From the NCBI GenBank assembly GCA_048886185.1, contig JBHLKY010000012.1:139313-171312 (forward strand): DNA of 32,000 bases, read 5' to 3'. Source of the DNA: Candidatus Hermodarchaeota archaeon (GTDB lineage Archaea; Asgardarchaeota; Heimdallarchaeia; Hodarchaeales; Hodarchaeaceae). Under the pieces are notes generated by a model. The model ran no database searches. It was not told the DNA's origin and was given only the letters and a program-made list of their open reading frames with translations. The translations under genes were made by a program, and so were the position numbers. Positions 3,031 to 27,873 of the stretch are shown here, one piece after another (position 1 is the first letter of the stretch; each line of letters starts with the position of its first letter).

Positions 3031-6000
3031 TTATATAACTGGTATTTCCTCTTGAGGATTCGTATTATTTGGTACAACCACGTTTACTTCAGGCCTGCTT
3101 CCTATCCATAGAGCTTTGTAAACTACTTTCATATCAATCTTAAGAACTTTTGTGAACATATCTAATGCTTCACTAAGAGTAATTGAAGGAGTATCTCGTA
3201 AGAGAGCTAAAGATTTATCAAAAAGGTTTATCTGAGCTTTAGGATCAGTAATACTGGCATCTAGGTTCGCTTTCACGATTGCTAAGCGTTTAAGCGCATT
3301 TAATGAAGCTCTAGAAATACTAGAAATTGAAATACCCCGTTTGAATCTCTCTTCTATGTATTTAATGCGTCGACAATCAATATAGAAGGGGGAAAGAAGA
3401 GTTACTGGGAAATGCTGCTTTACAACTTTCTCTGTCATAGATCCCACGAGGACTTCATTAACAACACCCAATTCATGTAGAGTTATTTTTTCTTCAATGT
3501 TTCTCATAATTGAAATGAATGAGGATTTTATATATTCTGGTGGTGTCTCTTTTAAAAATAAGAATATTTTAAATGAAGGGGAAGACACAATTAAGATCTG
3601 AACTTTATTCTTCTCGATAATACTTGTTCTAATACTTTCTTCAATTTGATTTTCTAACAGTTCAGAGTCATGTTCAATGAATAAGTTAACAATATCTGAT
3701 TGAAATGACTCTAAAAAGGAATCGATACCAACTGAAAGACCACCTAACACATCCTGTATCGCACTACGCGATTGATACATAATATTATTTGTATTATAAA
3801 TTGGAATGCCTACAGCAGTGGTAACTAAGATCATATAAGTGTTTAATAAGGATTCTAACCTTTTTTGATATTCACTGATCTCAGATATCTTCTGTTTCTT
3901 CCGCTCTTGATAGGTGATTGAAACTGTATAAACCACAATCACAATACACATCGTACATAAAATTGTCAGAATTACTGCTTCAAGTATAGAATCAAATATT
4001 GGAGGGGGAGGAAAGAAAAATGTAAATTCTCTTCTGATTGAGCCATTTGATTGATTAACTGAATCATATACTTCTATAAACCATTTAAAAGTTACTGTAT
4101 TGTGGAAAGAGAGCATTATTGTATAATGGGTTTGATTAAAAGTCATTGGAACTCTTTTCATCAGAGATTCGGATCCATAACCACCTGTTTCTTCAAGAGA
4201 AGTAATTTCATAATTCAAATATACTTCAGAGACTCCTGAACCCCAATCTGAGATATTTGCCCAGATATTTATTGTAGTTTTATTAATACTGTCAATTCCA
4301 GCCGAATGGATTATTGGTTCCCACCAATCAAACATCTGACCAGAGTTTGTGTACAGGCCTGCCTCATAATGACCCTTAAGAACTCCTTCATCGATAACAT
4401 GTATGATATAGGAGAATTTATGCAAATATTCTATCTGTATCTGATAAGTGTAATGAGATCCATTTAAAATCATTTCAGTTTCATTTAAAATCCATTCGTC
4501 ATACGTATCATCTTTCACTGATAATGTAATACTGTGTGTATTGAATAGATCATATAGCTTACACCATAACAGGAGTTCTCCAATATATGATGTTGATGCG
4601 GTTGTTCCATGGTTAACAACCTTTGCTGGTTGAAAGTTTGATGTTCTTTGATTTATCTCTCCTATGGTTATATTATTTAATGCAGTATCATATATCTTAA
4701 TGTAATAATTGAATGTCTGGTTAGAATCCACAATAATTGATTCGACATAATGTGATCCGTTATAACGCATTTCTTTTTTTTCTATCCATGAACCAAATCT
4801 ATTCAAGAAATTTATGGTAAGGTTGACACTATCAATAACACCAAATGGATCAGTAGCATTAGCCCAAAAGGTTAACAGGCATTCATATTGATTCCAAGTT
4901 GTGTTTAAAAAGCCAAATTCATAACAAATTGGATCTGTTTTATCATAAATAGTGATTTTTTGGGGGGAAGTGGATATATTGTTTCCACTATTATCAAAAG
5001 CAGTAATAAAATACCAGAAAGCACGATCAGGAACAAATCCATGTATATAGTAAATGTAAATGTTACCAGTTCCATTCCAATGCATTACTAGTCCGCTATA
5101 ATCAGAAACGTATGTGTAATCCAAGAGAACAGATGAATTATCATCAAATAATCCACTACCATAAGGACTCTCTTCAACTTCAGCCCAGATGACAACTGTT
5201 CCATTCTGGTACACAATTGATTCAGTTCTCGTAATATGTGGAGGAGCATTATCAGAAATTGTTATACTTTTAGAAATGACCCCCAAATTCCCCGCATTGT
5301 CTTCTACCCAAACTTTGATTAACACTTGATCTCCGAAAGGAAAGGTATAGGATGTTTTATATCGATAAAAGACATCATAATCCATTTCCAATAATATATG
5401 ATTCTCTAAATGAGTGAAATTAACATAAAAAGTATTATTCACATAGTAATTATCCCCGTAAGGATCAATCGCATATACAAAGACGGTTATTTCACCATCA
5501 TTCTCAGTAGAGTTTTCAATTGAATATATAATTATCGGGGAAACAGTATCAGATAATGTAAAGTTTGAAGCTTGATCATTTCCTAGATTATACCAATTAC
5601 CTGTAGTATCAACTGCTGATACATAATACCAAAGACTCTGTAAATTATATTCCAATGAATCAATGCGAGTAAAAAAAATAATATCTGATAATCGATTCAT
5701 TGAAAGATTAGTCCATGTTCCAAAATAATTCTGTGAATATAACAAATAAGCAGTAGTATCATTTAATGGCCAGTCAAGTATTTCAGCATAGAAGTCTACT
5801 GTGCCATTTCCCCAATCTATTTTCCAACATGATACAATAGGTATTGAATTATCATCTATAATGAACGGCCCCTGAATTATTGATGTATTCGAGTTATTGG
5901 CAAAATCTGATGCAGTAATCCAATAGTAAACAACATCATTGCATTGAAGCGCCAAATTATAATAAAAGTGCTCTTCTGATTCAATCATATAGTATGAAAG

Positions 6001-9000
6001 GATATCACCATTTATATCTAGATGTAATTGTACATTACTCTTATTAACACCGCTTTGATAATCATTGTGATCCTCTATAGATACATAAATCTCTACATGA
6101 CCATGGAAATGAGAATCAAAATTATCTAATATATCCTCCTCATCAATAGGTGGTGCTTCATCATCATCAGGGATAACCGTGCAAAAAGGAGGAGATAATA
6201 AGGAAACTTTTGATCCATTTTCATTTCCTAAACTATCTATTGCAGAATAAACCGTGTAGTTTAAAAGCACACCATATTTTGCTTCAAAATAACATACCCA
6301 AAACCCAGTAATGTTTTGATGCATTTCTAGAAAACGATTATTTACCTGCAATATTACAGGATCCATTAATAAACTCATATTATCTGTAATATTTGCATAA
6401 AACTGAAGTGTTCCATTCTGATAATCAGTAACACCATATTCAACAATAATGGGAGGAAAACCATCACCTAAATAAAGAGATTTAATATGAGTTACAATAG
6501 TATTATTTGCGACATCAATAGCAAGAATATTGTAAAAAATCTGAACATCTATATGGGTTAACGAATCCAATGCTGTTGCATTGTAAAATTGGTTATAAGA
6601 AAATTCTTCCATCGTAAAATTTTCATGAATAAGAAGAACTTCATCCGTTATATTGATTACAGTTAAATTGATATAAACTTCAAAGCTGCTCTTATCACTA
6701 ACATTAGCAAAAAAGGTAGGAGAGTTTTCGAAAAGAATGGAAGTATTAATAAAATAGAATTTATGCACTAGAGGAGGATCATTATCAGTAAATTCAGAGA
6801 CAATTACTGTGAACTCATACTTAGGATTAATCTGATAGGTTGAATAAGCAGCAAATTTAAGAAATGCAAGAGTTTTGTTAATTGAGTCTTCAAATTCTAC
6901 TGTTATATTATAATAATTATAAGGTAGATTTGAAAAGATAGCATACCCTAAATTTGTTGTATTTTGTGTCCAAGTAATTGTTGCATTGTTAAAATTTGTA
7001 ATGTTCACCCTAGCATTAGGAACAATCTTATTATCTAAATCTAAAACATTAATACGCACAGTTGCGTTCTCAGGGCCTCTCTCTAGATCTGCAATTATAT
7101 TTCCGTAAACATCATTATTTTCCTCATCAAAATAAATTACGTAGAGTCTTTCTGATGAAATGAAATCAGTCCGTAATACATTCCAAGCACTTTGAGTAGT
7201 GCTAACTCGACGCCCTGATCCCCAAGATTCTCCCCCGTCAGTTGAATTCTTTACAAAAACTGTATTATTGATGATATAAACAGCATAGAGATCATTATTT
7301 GAAATATCATAAATAGGTTTTGCTTCATCTCCATTTATTCCACAATTTGTAACTATATCAGTTTTTTGACTCCAAGAGCGGTTGTGATCAAAGAATACCC
7401 ATGTTTCTAAATCCCCTGTTGCGCTTAGAATATCATTATTAAGAATAGCATAAATATTATGAGTGTTTGGATCTATTGTTGCTCCCCAATTAGCATTGTT
7501 ATTATAAGAATCTTCTGGAAGTATTGTCTCAGAAATGATAGTTGTTACAAAGGTGGGAGAAGTATCCCATGTATCCAAATCCTCATTATAAGTAAATGAA
7601 TAAAGAGAATTTTCAGAAGCATCTTCATAAAGGCAAAGAATATCTCCACCACTTAGAGGAAGGAGTTGGCCATGGTCATCATCATCCATTAAGAAGGAAT
7701 ATGGAGGAGTAATATCATACCAACTAGAATCAAACTTGGCAAATTGGGGTCCATAGGTCATCCAAGAAGCACCAAAAATTAATCCATCAGTTGAAACTGT
7801 TACTGTACCACCTCCATCAGGTGCATTGTGGGATCCACCAGAAGGCATAATTACGGTCCATTCCCCACTAGAAGAGTCATCTTGAGTATCGAGGTAATTA
7901 TATACCATTTCATCGTCACTGATAGAGTTTGCAACAAAATGGATTTTTGTACCCGTATTATTGGGTGTCCACTGGTCAAACCAACAACTAAAACTTCGAA
8001 ACCGATATTCAGGAGGACCACAATCAATGTTAATTGGACCTTCCCAGATAGTCCCATTATCAGTTGTTTTATAATAGATTATCTCAGCCATACCACCGTT
8101 TGTCTTTTGGAAAAAGATATACCCATGAGAATTATTAATAAAAACGATATTTGGCCCTGGGTTGTATTCATCAGTGGCATCATAAACATCGGTATCAATA
8201 ATGACCTCCGATCCATCCAAAACAACACTGGAGTCTCTTTGTTCTTCAAAACTAACTGTATAGAAGTTTTCCGGATCGTGTTGGTTATTGTACTCAGTTA
8301 TGATCCAATCTGCAGAGATAATTCCCTTATAAAGACGTAACTCGTCAATTACTCCCGCAAATTTCTCATCACCACCATAAGTCTGATCAAGAACGAGACG
8401 CCCGATTTGATAATTACCAATAGTACCGAATGTAGGATTCCCCGTATTGCTCATACTACCCTCATCAAGACCATTTACGTACATTTTACCTATATTTTCG
8501 CTTTGGTTAGCAGTAGCAACTATGTAAATCCATGATTGTCCAGGCCAAGAGGTAGTAGTGCTATCTACATAATCAAAATTACTACCACCAATACCTTCTA
8601 CCTTTGAATAGAGCGCTCCATTATTTCCATGAAAATTATCTTGACCTGCAAAAGTAAACGCCATATTATAGGCATCGTGGTTATAATGGCCAAAAATTGG
8701 CATGGATTCAGCTGAATTTGAATTGAAAGGGGCATTTAATTGCACCCAAGTTGAGATACTATAATTTCCAGTCCCAATTCTAGGATCCCATACACCTAGA
8801 CTAATATAATCATCTATACCATCAAAACCTCGTGCTCTCCCTATTTTACCGACTTCATCAAAAGACCCTTGACTTGTTCCATCAACACTATTTGATGAAG
8901 AACCCATTAGGTCTGTATCTAAATGCCAAACTCCCACATAATTGTCACCCCATACACCAATAGCATTTTCTTGATTTTCAATGGTAGAATTCCCGTAATA

Positions 9001-9609
9001 CATCGATATTGTGGTATTTACATCACTTGATAGAAATGGTAATCGAATCCATGCCACAAGCAATGCATGAGATCCATTGTATGTTACATCAAAATGTTCT
9101 ATCTCATGATCAAGTGTTTTATTTAATGAATCTTTGAAAATAATGTCATCACCATCAACTTGGGTGTGATAACGAAGATCATTATCATAAAGTACTATCA
9201 GTACAGGAAAATCACTCAGATTGGCCTGAACATTACCTCCATCTATTGTAATATTTTTGCGATACTGAAAAGAAGGGGCTCCCCAATTTATGTTTTGAAT
9301 GTCAGCCTTAATAGGGAATGTTAATTGTCTTTCATTTTGATATGAGTTAGAAGGGAAAGATAAGCATGGGTTTAAATTCTCTGGATAATTTATTCCGTTT
9401 TTTTTATTGAATGAGCTTATGTTGAAAGCATTGCCTTTTAGCTGGGGTACTCTTAAGTACTCGTTTTCAACTTTAACCATCTGATTATGAAGAGGGTTTA
9501 CCTGAATAAAAAATTGGGAAAAAAGCGTTAATATAATCATAAATAAAAGGAATTTCAACCTTTCTACTCTTTTTCTGGATTTCATTTCACTATACTCGTA
9601 TTTAATCAC
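3031..9609 (-). CDS. Giant single-pass surface glycoprotein: DUF2341-like, LamG-like, Asp-box propeller, about 9 Ig-like repeats, TM helix, cytoplasmic longin-like domain
   Basis: N-terminal hydrophobic segment. 'YRKNITID...LSDFPVL...WIRLP...ISMYYGN' is DUF2341-like. 'VGVWHLD...FDGIDDYI...FAGVIDELRLY...WIITEYNNQ' is LamG-like. Asp-box-like TTDNGTIW and STDGGESW. Repeated D-x(1-3)-P-P/x-I units, many N-x-S/T sequons, TM helix at about 3910-3987. Confidence 0.8.
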   Translation of the reverse strand: MIKYEYSEMKSRKRVERLKFLLFMIILTLFSQFFIQVNPLHNQMVKVENEYLRVPQLKGNAFNISSFNKKNGINYPENLNPCLSFPSNSYQNERQLTFPIKADIQNINWGAPSFQYRKNITIDGGNVQANLSDFPVLIVLYDNDLRYHTQVDGDDIIFKDSLNKTLDHEIEHFDVTYNGSHALLVAWIRLPFLSSDVNTTISMYYGNSTIENQENAIGVWGDNYVGVWHLDTDLMGSSSNSVDGTSQGSFDEVGKIGRARGFDGIDDYISLGVWDPRIGTGNYSISTWVQLNAPFNSNSAESMPIFGHYNHDAYNMAFTFAGQDNFHGNNGALYSKVEGIGGSNFDYVDSTTTSWPGQSWIYIVATANQSENIGKMYVNGLDEGSMSNTGNPTFGTIGNYQIGRLVLDQTYGGDEKFAGVIDELRLYKGIISADWIITEYNNQHDPENFYTVSFEEQRDSSVVLDGSEVIIDTDVYDATDEYNPGPNIVFINNSHGYIFFQKTNGGMAEIIYYKTTDNGTIWEGPINIDCGPPEYRFRSFSCWFDQWTPNNTGTKIHFVANSISDDEMVYNYLDTQDDSSSGEWTVIMPSGGSHNAPDGGGTVTVSTDGLIFGASWMTYGPQFAKFDSSWYDITPPYSFLMDDDDHGQLLPLSGGDILCLYEDASENSLYSFTYNEDLDTWDTSPTFVTTIISETILPEDSYNNNANWGATIDPNTHNIYAILNNDILSATGDLETWVFFDHNRSWSQKTDIVTNCGINGDEAKPIYDISNNDLYAVYIINNTVFVKNSTDGGESWGSGRRVSTTQSAWNVLRTDFISSERLYVIYFDEENNDVYGNIIADLERGPENATVRINVLDLDNKIVPNARVNITNFNNATITWTQNTTNLGYAIFSNLPYNYYNITVEFEDSINKTLAFLKFAAYSTYQINPKYEFTVIVSEFTDNDPPLVHKFYFINTSILFENSPTFFANVSDKSSFEVYINLTVINITDEVLLIHENFTMEEFSYNQFYNATALDSLTHIDVQIFYNILAIDVANNTIVTHIKSLYLGDGFPPIIVEYGVTDYQNGTLQFYANITDNMSLLMDPVILQVNNRFLEMHQNITGFWVCYFEAKYGVLLNYTVYSAIDSLGNENGSKVSLLSPPFCTVIPDDDEAPPIDEEDILDNFDSHFHGHVEIYVSIEDHNDYQSGVNKSNVQLHLDINGDILSYYMIESEEHFYYNLALQCNDVVYYWITASDFANNSNTSIIQGPFIIDDNSIPIVSCWKIDWGNGTVDFYAEILDWPLNDTTAYLLYSQNYFGTWTNLSMNRLSDIIFFTRIDSLEYNLQSLWYYVSAVDTTGNWYNLGNDQASNFTLSDTVSPIIIYSIENSTENDGEITVFVYAIDPYGDNYYVNNTFYVNFTHLENHILLEMDYDVFYRYKTSYTFPFGDQVLIKVWVEDNAGNLGVISKSITISDNAPPHITRTESIVYQNGTVVIWAEVEESPYGSGLFDDNSSVLLDYTYVSDYSGLVMHWNGTGNIYIYYIHGFVPDRAFWYFITAFDNSGNNISTSPQKITIYDKTDPICYEFGFLNTTWNQYECLLTFWANATDPFGVIDSVNLTINFLNRFGSWIEKKEMRYNGSHYVESIIVDSNQTFNYYIKIYDTALNNITIGEINQRTSNFQPAKVVNHGTTASTSYIGELLLWCKLYDLFNTHSITLSVKDDTYDEWILNETEMILNGSHYTYQIQIEYLHKFSYIIHVIDEGVLKGHYEAGLYTNSGQMFDWWEPIIHSAGIDSINKTTINIWANISDWGSGVSEVYLNYEITSLEETGGYGSESLMKRVPMTFNQTHYTIMLSFHNTVTFKWFIEVYDSVNQSNGSIRREFTFFFPPPPIFDSILEAVILTILCTMCIVIVVYTVSITYQERKKQKISEISEYQKRLESLLNTYMILVTTAVGIPIYNTNNIMYQSRSAIQDVLGGLSVGIDSFLESFQSDIVNLFIEHDSELLENQIEESIRTSIIEKNKVQILIVSSPSFKIFLFLKETPPEYIKSSFISIMRNIEEKITLHELGVVNEVLVGSMTEKVVKQHFPVTLLSPFYIDCRRIKYIEERFKRGISISSISRASLNALKRLAIVKANLDASITDPKAQINLFDKSLALLRDTPSITLSEALDMFTKVLKIDMKVVYKALWIGSRPEVNVVVPNNTNPQEEIPVI

Positions 9610-11254: not shown

Positions 11255-11809
11255 CTAACAATAATGTTTAGTAATGATCTTATACCCTAATATTGAAAAA
11301 GCTTGGTCTACATTCTCTCCTGATTTCGCAGAGGTTTCAAAATAATCAATGGTATCATGTATATTTGAAAACTTTTTGGATAGCCGATTTTCAATATAAT
11401 TCTTTGCGGTGTCAATAGGAACCTTAATTTCTTTTGTTAAATCCCTTTTATTCCCTAGAACAATTATAGCAGAGTTTTGTTCAGTATTTTTTGAATACTC
11501 CTGTAACCACCATTCCAAGTTTTCTAAAGAATCTGGACTAGTTAAGTCAAATACCAAAAAAGCTCCAATTGACCCTTTATAATACAGTTTTCGGATTTGA
11601 TCGAAAGTTGGTTGCCCTGCTAGATCCCATATTTGAAAACGAAGATTTTTGGGGCCATCTGAAGTTTCTAAAGATACTTGTTTAAAAAGAAAATTAGCAC
11701 CAATTGTAGGAATGTATTCTAAAGTAAAATCCTCTCCTACATATCGACTCATTAGAGATGTTTTTCCTACTTTTCCATCTCCAAGCAAGCAAATTTTCGT
11801 AAAAATCAA
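11255..11809 (-). CDS. Rab-like small GTPase (paralogue 3)
   Basis: GDGKVGKT, YIPTIG, IWDLAGQ, YYKGS, LVFDLT, NKRD, ETSAK. The TTG start is preceded by an in-frame TAA, and an out-of-frame ATG lies at 11829. Confidence 0.93.
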   Translation of the reverse strand: MIFTKICLLGDGKVGKTSLMSRYVGEDFTLEYIPTIGANFLFKQVSLETSDGPKNLRFQIWDLAGQPTFDQIRKLYYKGSIGAFLVFDLTSPDSLENLEWWLQEYSKNTEQNSAIIVLGNKRDLTKEIKVPIDTAKNYIENRLSKKFSNIHDTIDYFETSAKSGENVDQAFSILGYKIITKHYC

Positions 11810-19115: not shown

Positions 19116-20834
19116 ATGAACACAGCGAACTCTGACGATCATTCTCTTGATAAAGATTTTATTCGGAAAATTGTTTCAGATGATGTTAAAAACAACAAAA
19201 ATAATAGTCGTGTACATACTCGTTTCCCCCCAGAACCAAATGGATGGTTACACATAGGCCACGCGAAATCAATTCATCTTAACTTCAGTATCGCAGCTGA
19301 GTTCAATGGATTATGTAATCTACGATTTGACGATACAGATCCCGCCAAAGAAAGCATGGAATATGTAGAGGCTATTAAAAAAGATATTCAATGGCTTGGT
19401 TTTGATTGGGAAGACAGACTTTATTTTGCATCGGATTATTTTGAACAGTTATACCAATTGGCAATGGGATTAATTAAAGCTGGAAAAGCATATGTATGTG
19501 ATTTAAGTGTAAAAGAGATCAAGCATCAAAGAGGAACATCAGAAGAACCAGGAATGGAAAGTCCCTATCGAAATCGATCAGTAGAAGAAAACATCAAGTT
19601 ATTTGAGAGGATGCGCAATGGAGAGTTTGAGGATGGATCTCGGGTGCTACGGGCGAAAATTGACATGACCTCTCCCAATATGCTTATGCGAGATCCAATA
19701 ATGTACCGAATAAAGAGGGTACCACATTATAGAACTGGAAATGAGTGGGTGATTTATCCAAGCTATGATTATACTCATGGTCAATCTGATGCAATCGAGG
19801 GAATTACTCATTCCCTCTGTTCGTTAGAATTTGAGACGCATAGACCCCTTTATAATTGGTACAGAGACCAACTTCTGAAATTAAACTTGTTAAAATACTG
19901 TCCTGAACAAATTGAATTTTCTAGATTAAATTTAACTTACACTGTTATGAGTAAGCGACGGCTTCTAGAGCTGGTTGAACAAGGACATGTTTCTGGATGG
20001 GACGATCCCCGAATGCCAACTCTTGCAGGATTACGTAGACGTGGTTATCCAGCGGAAGGAATAAGAAATTTCTTGGATAAAGTGGGAATTTCAAAGAGAG
20101 AAAATTATATTGATGTAGGTCTCTTAGAAGCATGTGTACGCGAAGTAATGGACAGAGAATGTAAACGAGTTATGGGAGTTCTCCATCCTCTGAAAGTTAT
20201 AATTCAGAACTATCCCGAAAATAAGGTCGAAGAATTAGATTCGCCCAATCATCCCAAGGATCCCAGTATGGGATCACGGAAAATACCATTCTCCCGAGTA
20301 ATATACATTGAACACGAAGATTTTCTTGAAAAACCTTCAAAGAAATTTTATCGATTAACCCCAGAAAGAGAGATACGACTTCGATACGCGTATTATATCA
20401 AGTGTGTAAATGTAATTAAAGATGAGAATTCTGGAGAAATCCTGGAATTACACGCGACCTACGATCCGGAAACAAAGGGAGGGTATGCTCCAGACGGTCG
20501 AAAAGTCAAAGCGACTCTCCATTGGGTTTCAGCTGAACATGCAATAGCAGCAGAAGCACGCTTATACGACCGACTTTTCAACAAGGAAAATCCAATGGAA
20601 AATGTAAAATTCACCCAAAATCTTAATCCAAAGTCACTAGAGAAGTTAACGTGTTTTGTAGAGCCAAGTCTAGCAAATGCAGCACCAGGAAACAAATATC
20701 AGTTTGAACGTTTAGGTTATTTCTGCGTAGATTTAGTCGATGCAACACCAGAAAAATTAGTTTTTAATCGAACAATTACCTTACGTGATCCCTGGTCTAA
20801 AATCAAGAAGACTCAGAAATCTATAAAGATGTAA
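19116..20834 (+). CDS. glnS: Glutamine--tRNA ligase (bacterial-type GlnRS)
   Basis: '[19 protein letters not shown]', '[10 protein letters not shown]', '[27 protein letters not shown]', 'VMSKR', '[10 protein letters not shown]', 'KATLHWVS', 'QFERLGYF', 'FNRTITLRD'. No eukaryotic N-terminal extension and no C-terminal YqeY domain. Confidence 0.95.
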
Positions 20835-20862: not shown

Positions 20863-20934
20863 CAGCCCCGCCCGGAATCGAACCGGGGTCATCGGATTCA
20901 GAGTCCGAGGTGATAACCGCTACACTACGGGGCT
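20863..20934 (-). tRNA. tRNA-Gln(CUG)
   Basis: AGCCCCG-TA-GTGT-AGCGGTTA-TCAC-C-TCGGA-CTCTGAA-TCCGA-TGAC-CCCGG-TTCGATT-CCGGG-CGGGGCT-G. Full cloverleaf, no intron, no encoded CCA. Confidence 0.97.
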
Positions 20935-20979: not shown

Positions 20980-21052
20980 CAGCCCCGTCCGGATTTGAAC
21001 CGGAGTCGAGAGGGTCAAAGCCTCTTATGCTAGTCCACTACACCACGGGGCT
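20980..21052 (-). tRNA. tRNA-Gln(UUG)
   Basis: AGCCCCG-TG-GTGT-AGTGGACTA-GCAT-A-AGAGG-CTTTGAC-CCTCT-CGAC-TCCGG-TTCAAAT-CCGGA-CGGGGCT-G. No intron, no encoded CCA. Confidence 0.97.
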
Positions 21053-25249: not shown

Positions 25250-25661
25250 TTTTATAGTAAAAAGAAATTATATCCAGATTAGGAGTAATTCCAAATAATT
25301 AAAAATTCAATTAATTACCATTCTATTGCTTTGATTTGAATAGGTTAATACACTCTTTCTGTTAATAATTGCATATCTAACGCTGACTTGTTCAGAAGTG
25401 TATATAAATTAGCTTCAGTGACTTTTTTGGCAAATCTCCAATATCCTCCCATTACTTATAGTATTTGTACTTATAATTGGATTACATACTCGAATTCGCT
25501 GGATTTACGCTGGACGATTCGATAAATATGATCTCTTCTTTTTGTGGTCTCACATAACAAGATTTATCGCCATTTCTATAAAGTGATCTCTATTTGGGAA
25601 GGTTTAAAATATTCTTATTCAGCATTTACATATTTTCATGAAGAATAGTGGTGACTATTAA

Positions 25662-26279
25662 ATGAAAACAAATCAAACAGTACGAATAATAATTCCTTTA
25701 ATACTACTTTTAGGTACCGCCACTGCTTTTATTGTAGCGGTAATAGGTAATCAACAAATAAATACCTCAACTGAAGAGCTTCAGGAGTCGAATACAGTTG
25801 CAGGTGGTTTTGTTATGTACCTTCACGTTGATGACATAAATGGAGAAGCAATTGAAGAAAACCATGAAGATTGGATTGATGTCCTCGCATATTCACACAA
25901 TGTCAGGATTCCAGATTTAACAGATCCAACGCGTTCTGTAGGCGTACGACAACATACTCCCCTCCGAGTTACAAAAATGGTAGATAGAGCCTCTCCTAAA
26001 CTATACCAATTCTGTGTTGATGGAAACTCGATCGCTTCAGTGAAATTAGAGTTCTGTATGACTAATGAAGGGCATTCAGTGTTTTATAAAATTGAACTCC
26101 AAAATGCTAGGATTGTTTCAGTACAAGATTATGGGATGTCGTCTGAGGATATCCCTACTGAGACGGTTTCATTTGTATATGAAAGAATAAAATGGGTTTA
26201 CACTCAATACGATTCACAAGGAAAAGCATTGGGAAACGTAGAGACAAACTGGATCACTTGGGGTGAGTCAGCAAGTTAA
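25662..26279 (+). CDS. hcp: Hcp-family (type VI secretion tube-like) protein with an N-terminal hydrophobic anchor or signal peptide
   Basis: 'MYLHVDDINGEAIEENHEDWIDVLAYSH', 'RQHTPLRVTKMVDRASPKLYQ', 'YKIELQNARIVSV', 'PTETVSFVYERIKWVY' are typical Hcp segments. About 50-aa N-terminal extension with 'IIIPLILLLGTATAFIVAVIG'. SD-like GGTGA at 25650-25654. Confidence 0.9.
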   Translation: MKTNQTVRIIIPLILLLGTATAFIVAVIGNQQINTSTEELQESNTVAGGFVMYLHVDDINGEAIEENHEDWIDVLAYSHNVRIPDLTDPTRSVGVRQHTPLRVTKMVDRASPKLYQFCVDGNSIASVKLEFCMTNEGHSVFYKIELQNARIVSVQDYGMSSEDIPTETVSFVYERIKWVYTQYDSQGKALGNVETNWITWGESAS

Positions 26280-26308
26280 TTCTCAAATGCAGAAGCTGTT
26301 GACCCATA

Positions 26309-26998
26309 ATGAAGATGTCAAAGACATTAATATTTATCATATTTCTATTAACGTTGAATCTAGGTACTCTTCCAGTAATAGCAGAGAGTGATCTTCCCAT
26401 TAAAAGTATAAAGAACATCAAAAATAACCAAACTGTCGATATATTACATGTAACGAAAATTGATTCAACCATTTCAATTATTATGGATTATGATCTAAAT
26501 TCAACCTCTCAACTAGCTACGAATGAATCATTAGTAGTTTTAGTTATTTTTAGCATAACTACTGATGAGAATCTATACAAGATTCAGGCAGCAATGCTTT
26601 TCTTTCACACTGGAGAAAATCAATACTTTATGTTCTGGATGCTTGGTGATCCTTATAAACAAGCTCAGGACTGGCAATCAGGTGTAAAAAATGAACATTT
26701 TGAGATAAACGGAGATCAGTTAACTCTAACTTTCATTGAATTCTTGAACATTGGTAACCCAGAAATTGAAACCACTGTAATAGCCAAGCTTGCATTTGTT
26801 GGCGAAGTAAGTGTCACTACAATCAATTTTCGACCAATTCTCGACCAGTTTATAGCTGAATTACCCATATCTTATGAAATCCCATCCATAGGATCTTCAT
26901 CTTCTGAGGAGGCACCAGGAGCTGCCACCCCAGGTTTTACGATCCTTTCTATTGCTAGTGTCGCGATTTCCGTTTTTCTATCCAAGAGGCGAAAGTAA
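26309..26998 (+). CDS. Secreted surface protein with a PGF-CTERM-like sorting signal
   Basis: N-terminal signal peptide 'MKMSKTLIFIIFLLTLNLGTLPVIA'. Ser-rich linker, then 'TPGFTILSIASVAISVFLSKRRK' (PGF, TM helix, basic tail). Confidence 0.8.
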   Translation: MKMSKTLIFIIFLLTLNLGTLPVIAESDLPIKSIKNIKNNQTVDILHVTKIDSTISIIMDYDLNSTSQLATNESLVVLVIFSITTDENLYKIQAAMLFFHTGENQYFMFWMLGDPYKQAQDWQSGVKNEHFEINGDQLTLTFIEFLNIGNPEIETTVIAKLAFVGEVSVTTINFRPILDQFIAELPISYEIPSIGSSSSEEAPGAATPGFTILSIASVAISVFLSKRRK

Positions 26999-27096
26999 AA
27001 ACCTTGAGAGATAACTATAGTACTACTAAATGAGAGGGCACCTGAATCATCTCAATCTCTCTGGTATTCTGATTCAACGCCCATCTTCTTTTTTTT

Positions 27097-27873
27097 TTAG
27101 TTATTTTTTAGTAAGTAATTGTAATTATACCATTTCTGAAATCCAAATTTCTCATATAACTCTATACCTTCCTTATTGTCTCGTTCAACATGAAGCCAAT
27201 AACAGGTACAACCTAACGACATTCCCCATTCTATCGCTTTTGTAACTAATGACGATCCAATTTTCCTCCTCCTAAAACCAGGGTGAACAAATAATTCTGC
27301 GATATATAGATAACCCTGAGGATCTAATATAACCATGGTGGAACCAACAATACTATTACCCTTCTTTCCTAAGATAAAACATTTCTTAGGAATGATAATC
27401 CTTTGTGAAACTTCAGTCATGATTTGCTGATCCTCAGTTAAACTTGAGGAATATTTGGCTAAAAAATCAGTGTATTCAGTTGATCTATTTTCGCTAAATT
27501 CATAAGAGAAGTCTTGATTTTGCGTTATCTTCACTACAGGATTATTACAACCCATTGTTATTAGTGAGTAATTACTGTAAGTGTATCCTCGCTCAAGTAA
27601 TGCACCCTCTAGCTCTGGTGGATCAAAATGATCAGCCAATTTAAATCGAACAGGTAAATTATATCTTTTATAAGCGGTTTCTGCAATACTAATGTCTTCA
27701 TCTAAATTATTACCAGTATAATTTATTGCTAGAATAGAATTCGACCTTCCAGTCAAACCTCCAGTAAAAGTTAGAATCCAACCATTCAAGAAAAAGCACT
27801 GCTTAGGTGGCCAAATATTCAAAAATGATTTCTGAAGTGTAATGATTCTTTCCTTTGGTATCATAATTACCAC
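27097..27873 (-). CDS. GNAT-family N-acetyltransferase
   Basis: 'GRSNSI' N-terminal motif, acetyl-CoA motif 'FVHPGFRRRKIGSSL', 'NKEGIELYEKFGF'. Confidence 0.9.
   Translation of the reverse strand: MVIMIPKERIITLQKSFLNIWPPKQCFFLNGWILTFTGGLTGRSNSILAINYTGNNLDEDISIAETAYKRYNLPVRFKLADHFDPPELEGALLERGYTYSNYSLITMGCNNPVVKITQNQDFSYEFSENRSTEYTDFLAKYSSSLTEDQQIMTEVSQRIIIPKKCFILGKKGNSIVGSTMVILDPQGYLYIAELFVHPGFRRRKIGSSLVTKAIEWGMSLGCTCYWLHVERDNKEGIELYEKFGFQKWYNYNYLLKNN

Follow-up and report, generated by a model that had tools for sequence, protein, structure and literature searches.

We report that an Hcp-family gene in a 32,000-nt stretch of DNA from a Candidatus Hermodarchaeota archaeon (contig JBHLKY010000012.1, positions 139,313 to 171,312; hereafter, the window) encodes a protein with a conserved hydrophobic leader, and that this gene and the surface-protein gene directly downstream, the partner gene, probably make up a two-gene cell-surface module that is unrelated to contractile injection. 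The window belongs to contig C12 of a 4.84-Mb draft genome (75 contigs, 96% complete). Canonical Hcp is cytoplasmic, has no signal peptide and forms stacking hexameric rings. An earlier note, made from the letters of the window, had proposed an orphan type VI secretion system (T6SS) Hcp that is exported or membrane-tethered and acts independently of contractile injection. Export and this independence are now well supported by sequence and comparative genomics.

Identity and fold of the Hcp protein

The gene and the core of its product were delimited as follows.

25662..26279, + strand: gene of the Hcp family encoding 205 aa (coordinates include the stop codon)
25812..26255, + strand: Hcp beta-barrel core, aa 51-198 (Pfam, PDB profile search and Foldseek)

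The product matched PF05638 (T6SS_HCP) with an E-value of 2.1e-33 and 115.8 bits (cut-off 23.5), residues 53-180 aligning with positions 1-129 of the 129-position profile, and it also passed the NCBIfam model TIGR03344 (90.9 bits, cut-off 58.9). In the AlphaFold2 (AF2) model, the predicted local distance difference test (pLDDT) value of the core was 84-94, and the L2-3 loop (residues 84-94) was of low confidence. A family-profile search of the PDB found 7fcf at an E-value of 1.5e-38, as well as 4w64, 3eaa and 1y12. Foldseek aligned the model with 7fcf, 8yun, 4w64, 3eaa and 1y12 at a target-normalised template modelling score, TM(target), of 0.75-0.88, with a probability of 1.00 for 7fcf, 8yun, 4w64 and 1y12; the identity to the solved Hcps was 24-31%. 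The archaeal gene is confirmed by sequence and fold as a genuine member of the Hcp family, and the complete Hcp-like core that the earlier note had read from the letters is borne out. Even with a clade-specific hidden Markov model (HMM) at E<=10, it was the only Hcp-like open reading frame (ORF) in the whole genome. Its homologues carry the NCBI label 'Hcp family type VI secretion system effector' and the source names Promethearchaeota, Hodarchaeota and Heimdallarchaeota.

The profile match and the beta-barrel fold are shared with Hcp/TssD, the T6SS inner tube (P. aeruginosa Hcp1, 1Y12, 7FCF; EvpC, 3EAA). The tail tubes of myophages (T4 gp19) and of extracellular contractile injection systems (Afp1/Pvc1) have the same ancient tube-protein superfold as Hcp. 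The window protein differs from these in matching Hcp instead of gp19 (the genome lacks PF06841) and in having no sheath or baseplate to go with it.

Search for injection machinery

Given that sequence and fold are unmistakably those of Hcp, and that the genome is a draft, the protein might be a working tube subunit of a T6SS, of an extracellular contractile injection system (eCIS) or of a prophage tail, with the remaining genes overlooked or too diverged to be recognised. We regard this as very improbable. The family scans of the window yielded no sheath, spike, PAAR or baseplate family, in agreement with the earlier note, which had recognised no sheath, VgrG, PAAR or baseplate gene there. 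A T6SS/eCIS locus elsewhere, for which that note had proposed a genome search, was not found either: all six hallmark families, VipB, Phage_sheath_1, GPW_gp25, Phage_base_V, PAAR and Phage_T4_gp19, gave zero matches in the genome, and the same searches gave matches in control genomes (accessions searched: PF04984 for the phage-type sheath, PF06841 for the gp19-type tube and PF04965 for gp25). VipB, Phage_sheath_1 and GPW_gp25 were found in 0/22 genomes of the genus, closed, single-contig genomes included. Hcp was present in 18 of these 22 (the own genome and 17 of the 21 others), and the four genomes without it are 71-88% complete.

Two marks of a T6SS tube subunit, a leaderless cytoplasmic state and co-occurrence with TssB/C, VgrG, PAAR and TssE/gp25, were therefore lacking, as were the sheath, gp19-type tube and gp25/baseplate genes of an eCIS or a myophage tail. 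A Sec-type leader is also incompatible with cytoplasmic tube assembly. The genes flanking the Hcp pair are of the housekeeping type, and the GC content of the pair is like that of its surroundings. What sets the archaeal protein apart from Hcp/TssD is its conserved leader of about 50 aa and its surface-anchored partner, in an archaeal genome without sheath, spike, PAAR or baseplate genes.

Conservation of the leader and the linker

The N-terminal extension of about 50 aa, with a basic n-region and a hydrophobic stretch of about 20 residues, was found as the earlier note had described it.

25662..25748, + strand: leader, basic n-region (aa 1-8) and 21-residue hydrophobic helix (aa 9-29)
25749..25811, + strand: polar acidic linker (aa 30-50)
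25650..25654, + strand: GGTGA resembling a Shine-Dalgarno motif, 7 nt 5' of the ATG at 25662 (from sequence)

The n-region is charged at K2 and R8. Residues 9-29 are uncharged, with a Kyte-Doolittle mean of 2.68 over 19 residues, and the AF2 model has a helix at residues 5-29 and a disordered linker (aa 30-50). Homologues were compared in two sets, a close set of 28 full-length proteins (45-66% identity, about 200 aa) from a word-indexed search and a set of 30 loci fetched from 26 Asgard genomes. The leader was kept by all 60 distinct Asgard homologues examined. An n-region, a hydrophobic stretch of about 20 aa and a linker were found in 28/28 database homologues and in 30/30 genomic loci, and the hydrophobic N-terminus, whose retention in archaeal homologues the earlier note had left to be checked, is thus general among the Asgard copies. 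The order of basic residues, about 20 hydrophobic residues, short polar segment, acidic linker and beta1 is far beyond chance, since it was the same in all 30 loci of the 26 genomes; the polar segment after the hydrophobic stretch mostly terminates in [V/A]-N-[A/T]-[S/T].

The hydrophobic stretch is 20-22 residues long among the Asgard copies. In the close set, I9, I11, L17 and G18 were invariant and P12 was nearly so, and the mean pairwise identity was 0.74 for the n-region, 0.70 for the hydrophobic region (h-region), 0.56 for the core and 0.35 for the linker. The sequence of the linker is weakly conserved (identity 0.23-0.35); its length is tightly held, with a median of 18 aa and an interquartile range of 17-20, against 0-38 aa in bacterial leader-bearing Hcps.

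A leaderless cytoplasmic Hcp, translated from near Met52 after a mis-called start, is the least probable of the readings weighed here. An in-frame Met does stand at residue 52, two residues into beta1. However, this position was Met in 14 and Ala in the other 14 of the 28 close homologues, so an internal start is not conserved, and the 50 codons upstream of it are conserved as protein at all loci. The GGTGA motif 7 nt before the ATG argues in addition for 25662 as the true start.

Membrane anchor or cleavable signal peptide

Two readings of the leader were weighed, a signal anchor and a long Sec signal peptide. Its charges, basic before and acidic after the hydrophobic stretch, are compatible with an N-in/C-out orientation. 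Judged from sequence, the leader is more likely retained as a membrane anchor than cut at V-N-A/T-S. Retention is favoured because an uncharged stretch of 20-22 residues has transmembrane length, because the leader of the close family is more conserved than the mature domain and holds its Pro and Gly, and because the ruler-like length of the linker is more in keeping with a tether than with a free tail. In addition, the residue at -1 of the putative cleavage site is Thr in 19/28 close homologues, which makes a poor site for signal peptidase.

The leader may nevertheless be a cleavable Sec signal peptide, in which case Hcp would form a soluble extracellular or pseudo-periplasmic ring, held at the cell only through the anchored partner; we take this as possible, but do not favour it. 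The conserved motif [V/A/I]-N-[T/A]-[S/T] at aa 33-36, which may be either a sequon for N-glycosylation or a site for signal peptidase, speaks for cleavage: it stands 4-6 residues past the hydrophobic stretch, is widely conserved and reads VNAS in the divergent same-genus group. Most bacterial relatives have classic A-x-A signal peptides right before beta1, and with the partner anchored, the dependence of a soluble ring on one constant neighbouring gene would be accounted for. Three points temper the case for retention of the leader. The V-N-A/T-S motif obeys the -3/-1 rule of signal peptidase; a crude measure of h-region length did not separate anchors from signal peptides; and among 17 same-genus loci, the h-region was less conserved than the core (identity 0.38 versus 0.52), as is expected of any leader. 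The ratio of the two was 0.73 at these loci. For the signal peptide of the partner in the same genomes it was 0.54 (0.22 versus 0.41 for the domain), that is, relative to its domain, the partner's signal peptide is less kept than the Hcp leader.

Two other kinds of signal were considered and rejected. A class III (pilin-like) signal would have a [K/R]-[G/A] site, which was absent: V-R, T-R, F-R or similar pairs stand ahead of the stretch, and the -1 position was never G or A in the Asgard copies. A disordered linker of about 20 aa moreover parts the helix from the Hcp domain, unlike the continuous helix-globular layout of a pilin. A lipobox was rejected since the leader contains no Cys.

The partner gene

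26309..26998, + strand: partner gene, 229 aa, starting 29 nt 3' of the Hcp gene
Parts of the partner protein: signal peptide, aa 1-26; beta-sandwich ectodomain, aa ~40-190; Ser/Thr-rich stalk; tail, aa 209-229

A homologue of the partner was found by BLASTP directly 3' of Hcp and on the same strand in 24/30 loci, and 3 further loci had a diverged ORF with the partner's layout, giving 27/30 in total. When 400 Asgard genomes were searched with a partner profile, 28 of the 29 full-length copies abutted an Hcp gene; weaker matches were confined to the stalk and tail regions of large surface proteins that are otherwise unrelated. In the partner tree, the copies divide just as Hcp does, into clade A (the primary copies of the genus) and clade B (second copies of the same genomes, together with families f19 and f32), and second copies within one genome follow this split as well. 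Clade labels changed 2 times on the partner tree versus 7.6 times when the labels were shuffled, with none of 500 shuffles as low. The Hcp-partner pair has therefore been passed on and duplicated as a unit. The word 'orphan' in the earlier note has to be given up, as Hcp is no lone orphan, having in the surface-protein gene an obligate downstream partner.

The beta-sandwich of the partner was modelled with a pLDDT of 93-98 over residues ~40-165. The protein had no Pfam or NCBIfam family match, and Foldseek found nothing in the PDB at E<=0.001. With VIA-align, the ectodomain gave Z-scores of 6.7 with the C-terminal domains of glucodextranase (1ulv), 5.9 with the gamma subunit of ethylbenzene dehydrogenase (2ivf_C) and 4.7 with CBM9 (1i82), and its matches in the Atlas feature search included Glucodextran_C, CBM9 and EB_dh at 0.77-0.86. 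We treat the CBM9/DOMON/EB_dh-like topology suggested by the model as a lead and not as family membership. A 1:1 complex of Hcp (aa 48-205) and partner (aa 38-192), predicted from locus-matched alignments, scored 0.17 against a mark of 0.32, which speaks neither for binding nor against it; an interface that depends on a ring lies beyond such a 1:1 design.

Two further observations concern the neighbours of Hcp and the copies of the partner. The genes that follow Hcp in family f6 were L024:1836-3302, with a weak NosD-like match, L025:3-1451 (- strand), and L029:819-2267, a Kelch beta-propeller. The sole full-domain partner homologue without an adjacent detected Hcp (G065:C1:1008590-1009063) is a 203-aa frame that covers partner positions 85-230 and may be a truncated third copy.

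Sorting signal and sortases

The tail of the partner consists of TPGF, 17 hydrophobic residues and KRRK, and is conserved in 26 partners. The partner thus has the layout of a PGF-CTERM-type substrate, with motif, hydrophobic helix and basic cluster after a Ser/Thr-rich stalk. The same signal peptide, Ser/Thr stalk and [P/S]-G-[F/L/Y] + helix + basic tail are found in the PGF-CTERM/ArtA substrates of Haloferax volcanii; the partner differs from them in that no Pfam or NCBIfam sorting-signal model picks up its tail and in that its ectodomain is only weakly CBM9/EB_dh/glucodextranase-C-like. The tripartite tail, in the common form [P/S/T/A]-G-[F/L/Y...] + helix + basic tail, was present in 39 ORFs of the genome, most of them with a signal peptide and a Ser/Thr stalk. 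From its recurrence in sequence, the tail appears to be a real class of sorting signal in this organism.

Two genes for heimdallarchaeosortases were identified by NF045528, at 233.7 and 260.8 bits (cut-off 130).

L036:1447-2199, - strand, and L037:1114-1890, + strand: heimdallarchaeosortase genes (genome contigs C7 and C8)

The 39 tailed ORFs are candidates for a substrate list of these enzymes. The weak matches to TIGR04125 in the genome proved, by NF045528, to be heimdallarchaeosortases. Exosortase_EpsH (PF09721) had no match in the genome; the absence of a sortase, which this null had first suggested, was overturned by the two NF045528 genes. Among 33 Hcp loci, no heimdallarchaeosortase gene was adjacent to Hcp.

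A wider family of exported Hcps

Run exhaustively against 1.84 billion representatives, phmmer returned 5,489 matches, and a careful maximum-likelihood tree was built from 168 Hcp cores. The Asgard Hcps make up one clade on this tree, all 66 rows with the Asgard layout falling on one side of one branch (ultrafast bootstrap 97, SH-aLRT 91, 95% of bootstrap trees). Among the single-domain neighbours from outside Asgard, 65 had a hydrophobic N-terminus and 29 were leaderless. The leader-bearing Hcp in an archaeon that the earlier note had singled out is therefore real but not unique, for leader-bearing forms dominate among its nearest relatives.

Bacterial and archaeal leader-bearing Hcps (P0054, P0061, P0065, P0048, P0031/P0179) hold 1, 2, 3 or 6 domains and share the same core behind a hydrophobic export signal. 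The Asgard copies differ from them in forming their own clade, in combining a stretch of transmembrane length with a 17-20-aa linker and in having their own obligate partner. Many of the non-Asgard relatives have a classic signal peptide that terminates in A-x-A right at beta1, and in many bacterial leader-bearing Hcps the signal peptide abuts beta1, unlike the linker layout of the Asgard copies.

The highest-scoring phmmer matches were proteins of 1,000-2,200 aa with six Hcp domains. Among 38 multi-domain matches to a core HMM, 18 had six domains, 11 had two, 6 had three, and four, five and seven domains occurred once each. No T6SS genes were found near leader-bearing relatives in the 3 contexts inspected (a six-domain protein, a signal-peptide protein and a three-domain pair). 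Exported, T6SS-independent Hcp would thus seem to be a wide class, and the six-fold domain counts argue that the exported forms still make rings.

Some of these relatives are of interest in their own right. Six-domain single chains (L035:8540-15034, P0179/P0031; P0032-P0043), many of which open with an L-E-x-R-x-L-L motif of Planctomycete style, probably represent covalent, pseudo-hexameric rings of Hcp; there were no T6SS genes near the L035 protein. P0048 is a three-domain Hcp of 570 aa with an N-terminal transmembrane stretch, encoded directly after a 546-aa Hcp-domain protein whose size suggests three domains, i.e., 3+3 = 6. A thiolase/ACP_syn_III_C/OB_ChsH2 trio nearby suggests that the genome of P0048 is archaeal.

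These domain counts also bear on the possibility that the Hcp fold is reused in the archaeal protein as a monomeric or otherwise non-ring, adhesin-like surface binding domain. The divergence from the solved Hcps, the low-confidence L2-3 loop and the pairing of the f6 Hcps with other binding-type proteins would agree with such a use. We consider it unlikely, however, given that all 129 positions of the Hcp profile are matched and that related exported forms of 6, 3+3 or 2 domains are sensible only for a six-fold ring.

A proposed surface module

The leader would route Hcp through Sec, with the N-terminus left inside and the Hcp domain outside. The exported domains probably still assemble into six-fold rings. 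Their N-termini would all leave one face of the ring, presumably as in the solved GspE-, Vps4- and TrwK-Hcp1 fusions, and for this reason the ring, tied down by six linkers whose length hardly varies (17-20 aa), would lie flat at a height of a few nm over the membrane. The solved N-terminal fusions to Hcp1 (4kss, 4ksr, 6ap1 and 7o42) demonstrate that an N-terminal extension is compatible with the hexamer. The partner would be secreted, with a beta-sandwich that resembles CBM9/DOMON in topology and is borne by a Ser/Thr stalk, itself probably glycosylated, and its PGF-type tail would, by analogy with ArtA, be processed into a lipid anchor by the heimdallarchaeosortases.

Comparative genomics suggests that Hcp and partner act jointly at the cell surface. 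The ring may hold or organise the partner, or both may belong to one envelope assembly. Our first guess is that Hcp serves the partner domain of about 17 kDa as a scaffold or binding ring; in size, this domain is in the class of the cargo carried in the lumen of T6SS Hcp rings. A more specific arrangement, in which six tethered Hcps form a ring parallel to the membrane that holds the lipid-anchored partner in or on its lumen or tiles a p6 lattice, is distinctly unlikely. If it held in either version, the fold of phage and T6SS tubes would have become a structural unit of the cell envelope in Hodarchaeales, which are the archaeal lineage nearest to eukaryotes.

Some findings do not fit a joint surface module well. 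The partner is not universal, as a different, larger secreted protein (>480 aa) stands after Hcp in 3 loci of family f6. The fold match of the partner is weak, the best Z-score being 6.7. The PGF tail was matched by no Pfam (E<=0.1) or NCBIfam (E<=1) sorting model, although models of about 25 aa are easily lost to speed filters.

Hcp is treated as a marker of T6SS. The archaeal lineage described here is conserved and cannot work as a T6SS tube, because it has its own leader, because its genomes contain no injection machinery and because it is tied to a surface-anchored partner; T6SS should accordingly not be inferred from Hcp alone. The results also suggest that exported Hcp rings of 1, 3 or 6 domains form a large class, of which we found no description in the literature searched. 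For Hodarchaeales, which among the Asgard groups are most often placed beside eukaryotes and whose cell surface is almost unknown, they provide a concrete surface component that is amenable to testing. Both ectodomains are small and are expected to be easy to express. Our literature search found no paper that combined Hcp, Asgard and type VI secretion, nor one on an orphan or signal-peptide Hcp. New here are the single-clade tree, the 28/29 adjacency, the matching trees of Hcp and partner, the lack of sheath and gp25 throughout the genus, the constraint on linker length, the heimdallarchaeosortases and the fold of the partner.

Promoter and transcript signals

25603..25611, + strand: TATA-like box TTTAAAATA, 51 nt 5' of the Hcp ATG (read from sequence)
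26280..26308, + strand: intergenic spacer between Hcp and partner genes, 29 nt, without a T-run (from sequence)
27089..27098, + strand: run of 10 T, 90 nt past the partner stop, archaeal terminator-like (from sequence)

The TATA-like box is a candidate archaeal promoter. Since the 29-nt spacer has no T-run, the Hcp and partner genes are likely co-transcribed; in related loci, the two genes are separated by 11-36 nt or overlap slightly. The start of the partner gene had no motif comparable to the GGTGA of the Hcp gene. A scan for hairpin terminators of the bacterial type, which is uninformative for an archaeon, found none. The 412 nt 5' of the Hcp gene (25250-25661) hold no convincing ORF; in a closed relative, this position is occupied by an extra gene of 226 aa without a family match (L004:7164-7844).

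Surroundings of the Hcp pair

The upstream methyltransferase and downstream GNAT genes were considered as members of the module and rejected, because their synteny is limited to the closest relatives. The GC content is even across the window (0.30-0.38). The gene content is that of an Asgard-like archaeon, with HTH_10 and HVO_A0563-type regulators, two Ras-family GTPases and a LamG protein of 2,191 aa. Other features of the window were as follows.

2054-2632, - strand: Ras-family small GTPase (Pfam Ras, E 7e-44)
3031-9609, - strand: LamG/DUF2341 surface protein, 2,191 aa, between the two Ras-family GTPase genes
11255-11809, - strand: Ras-family small GTPase (Pfam Ras, E 7e-42)
19116-20834, + strand: class I Glu/Gln-type aminoacyl-tRNA synthetase
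20863-20934 and 20980-21052, - strand: pair of tRNA-Gln genes, anticodons CTG and TTG, convergent with the synthetase gene

The pair of Ras GTPase genes around the LamG/DUF2341 gene is typical Asgard content.

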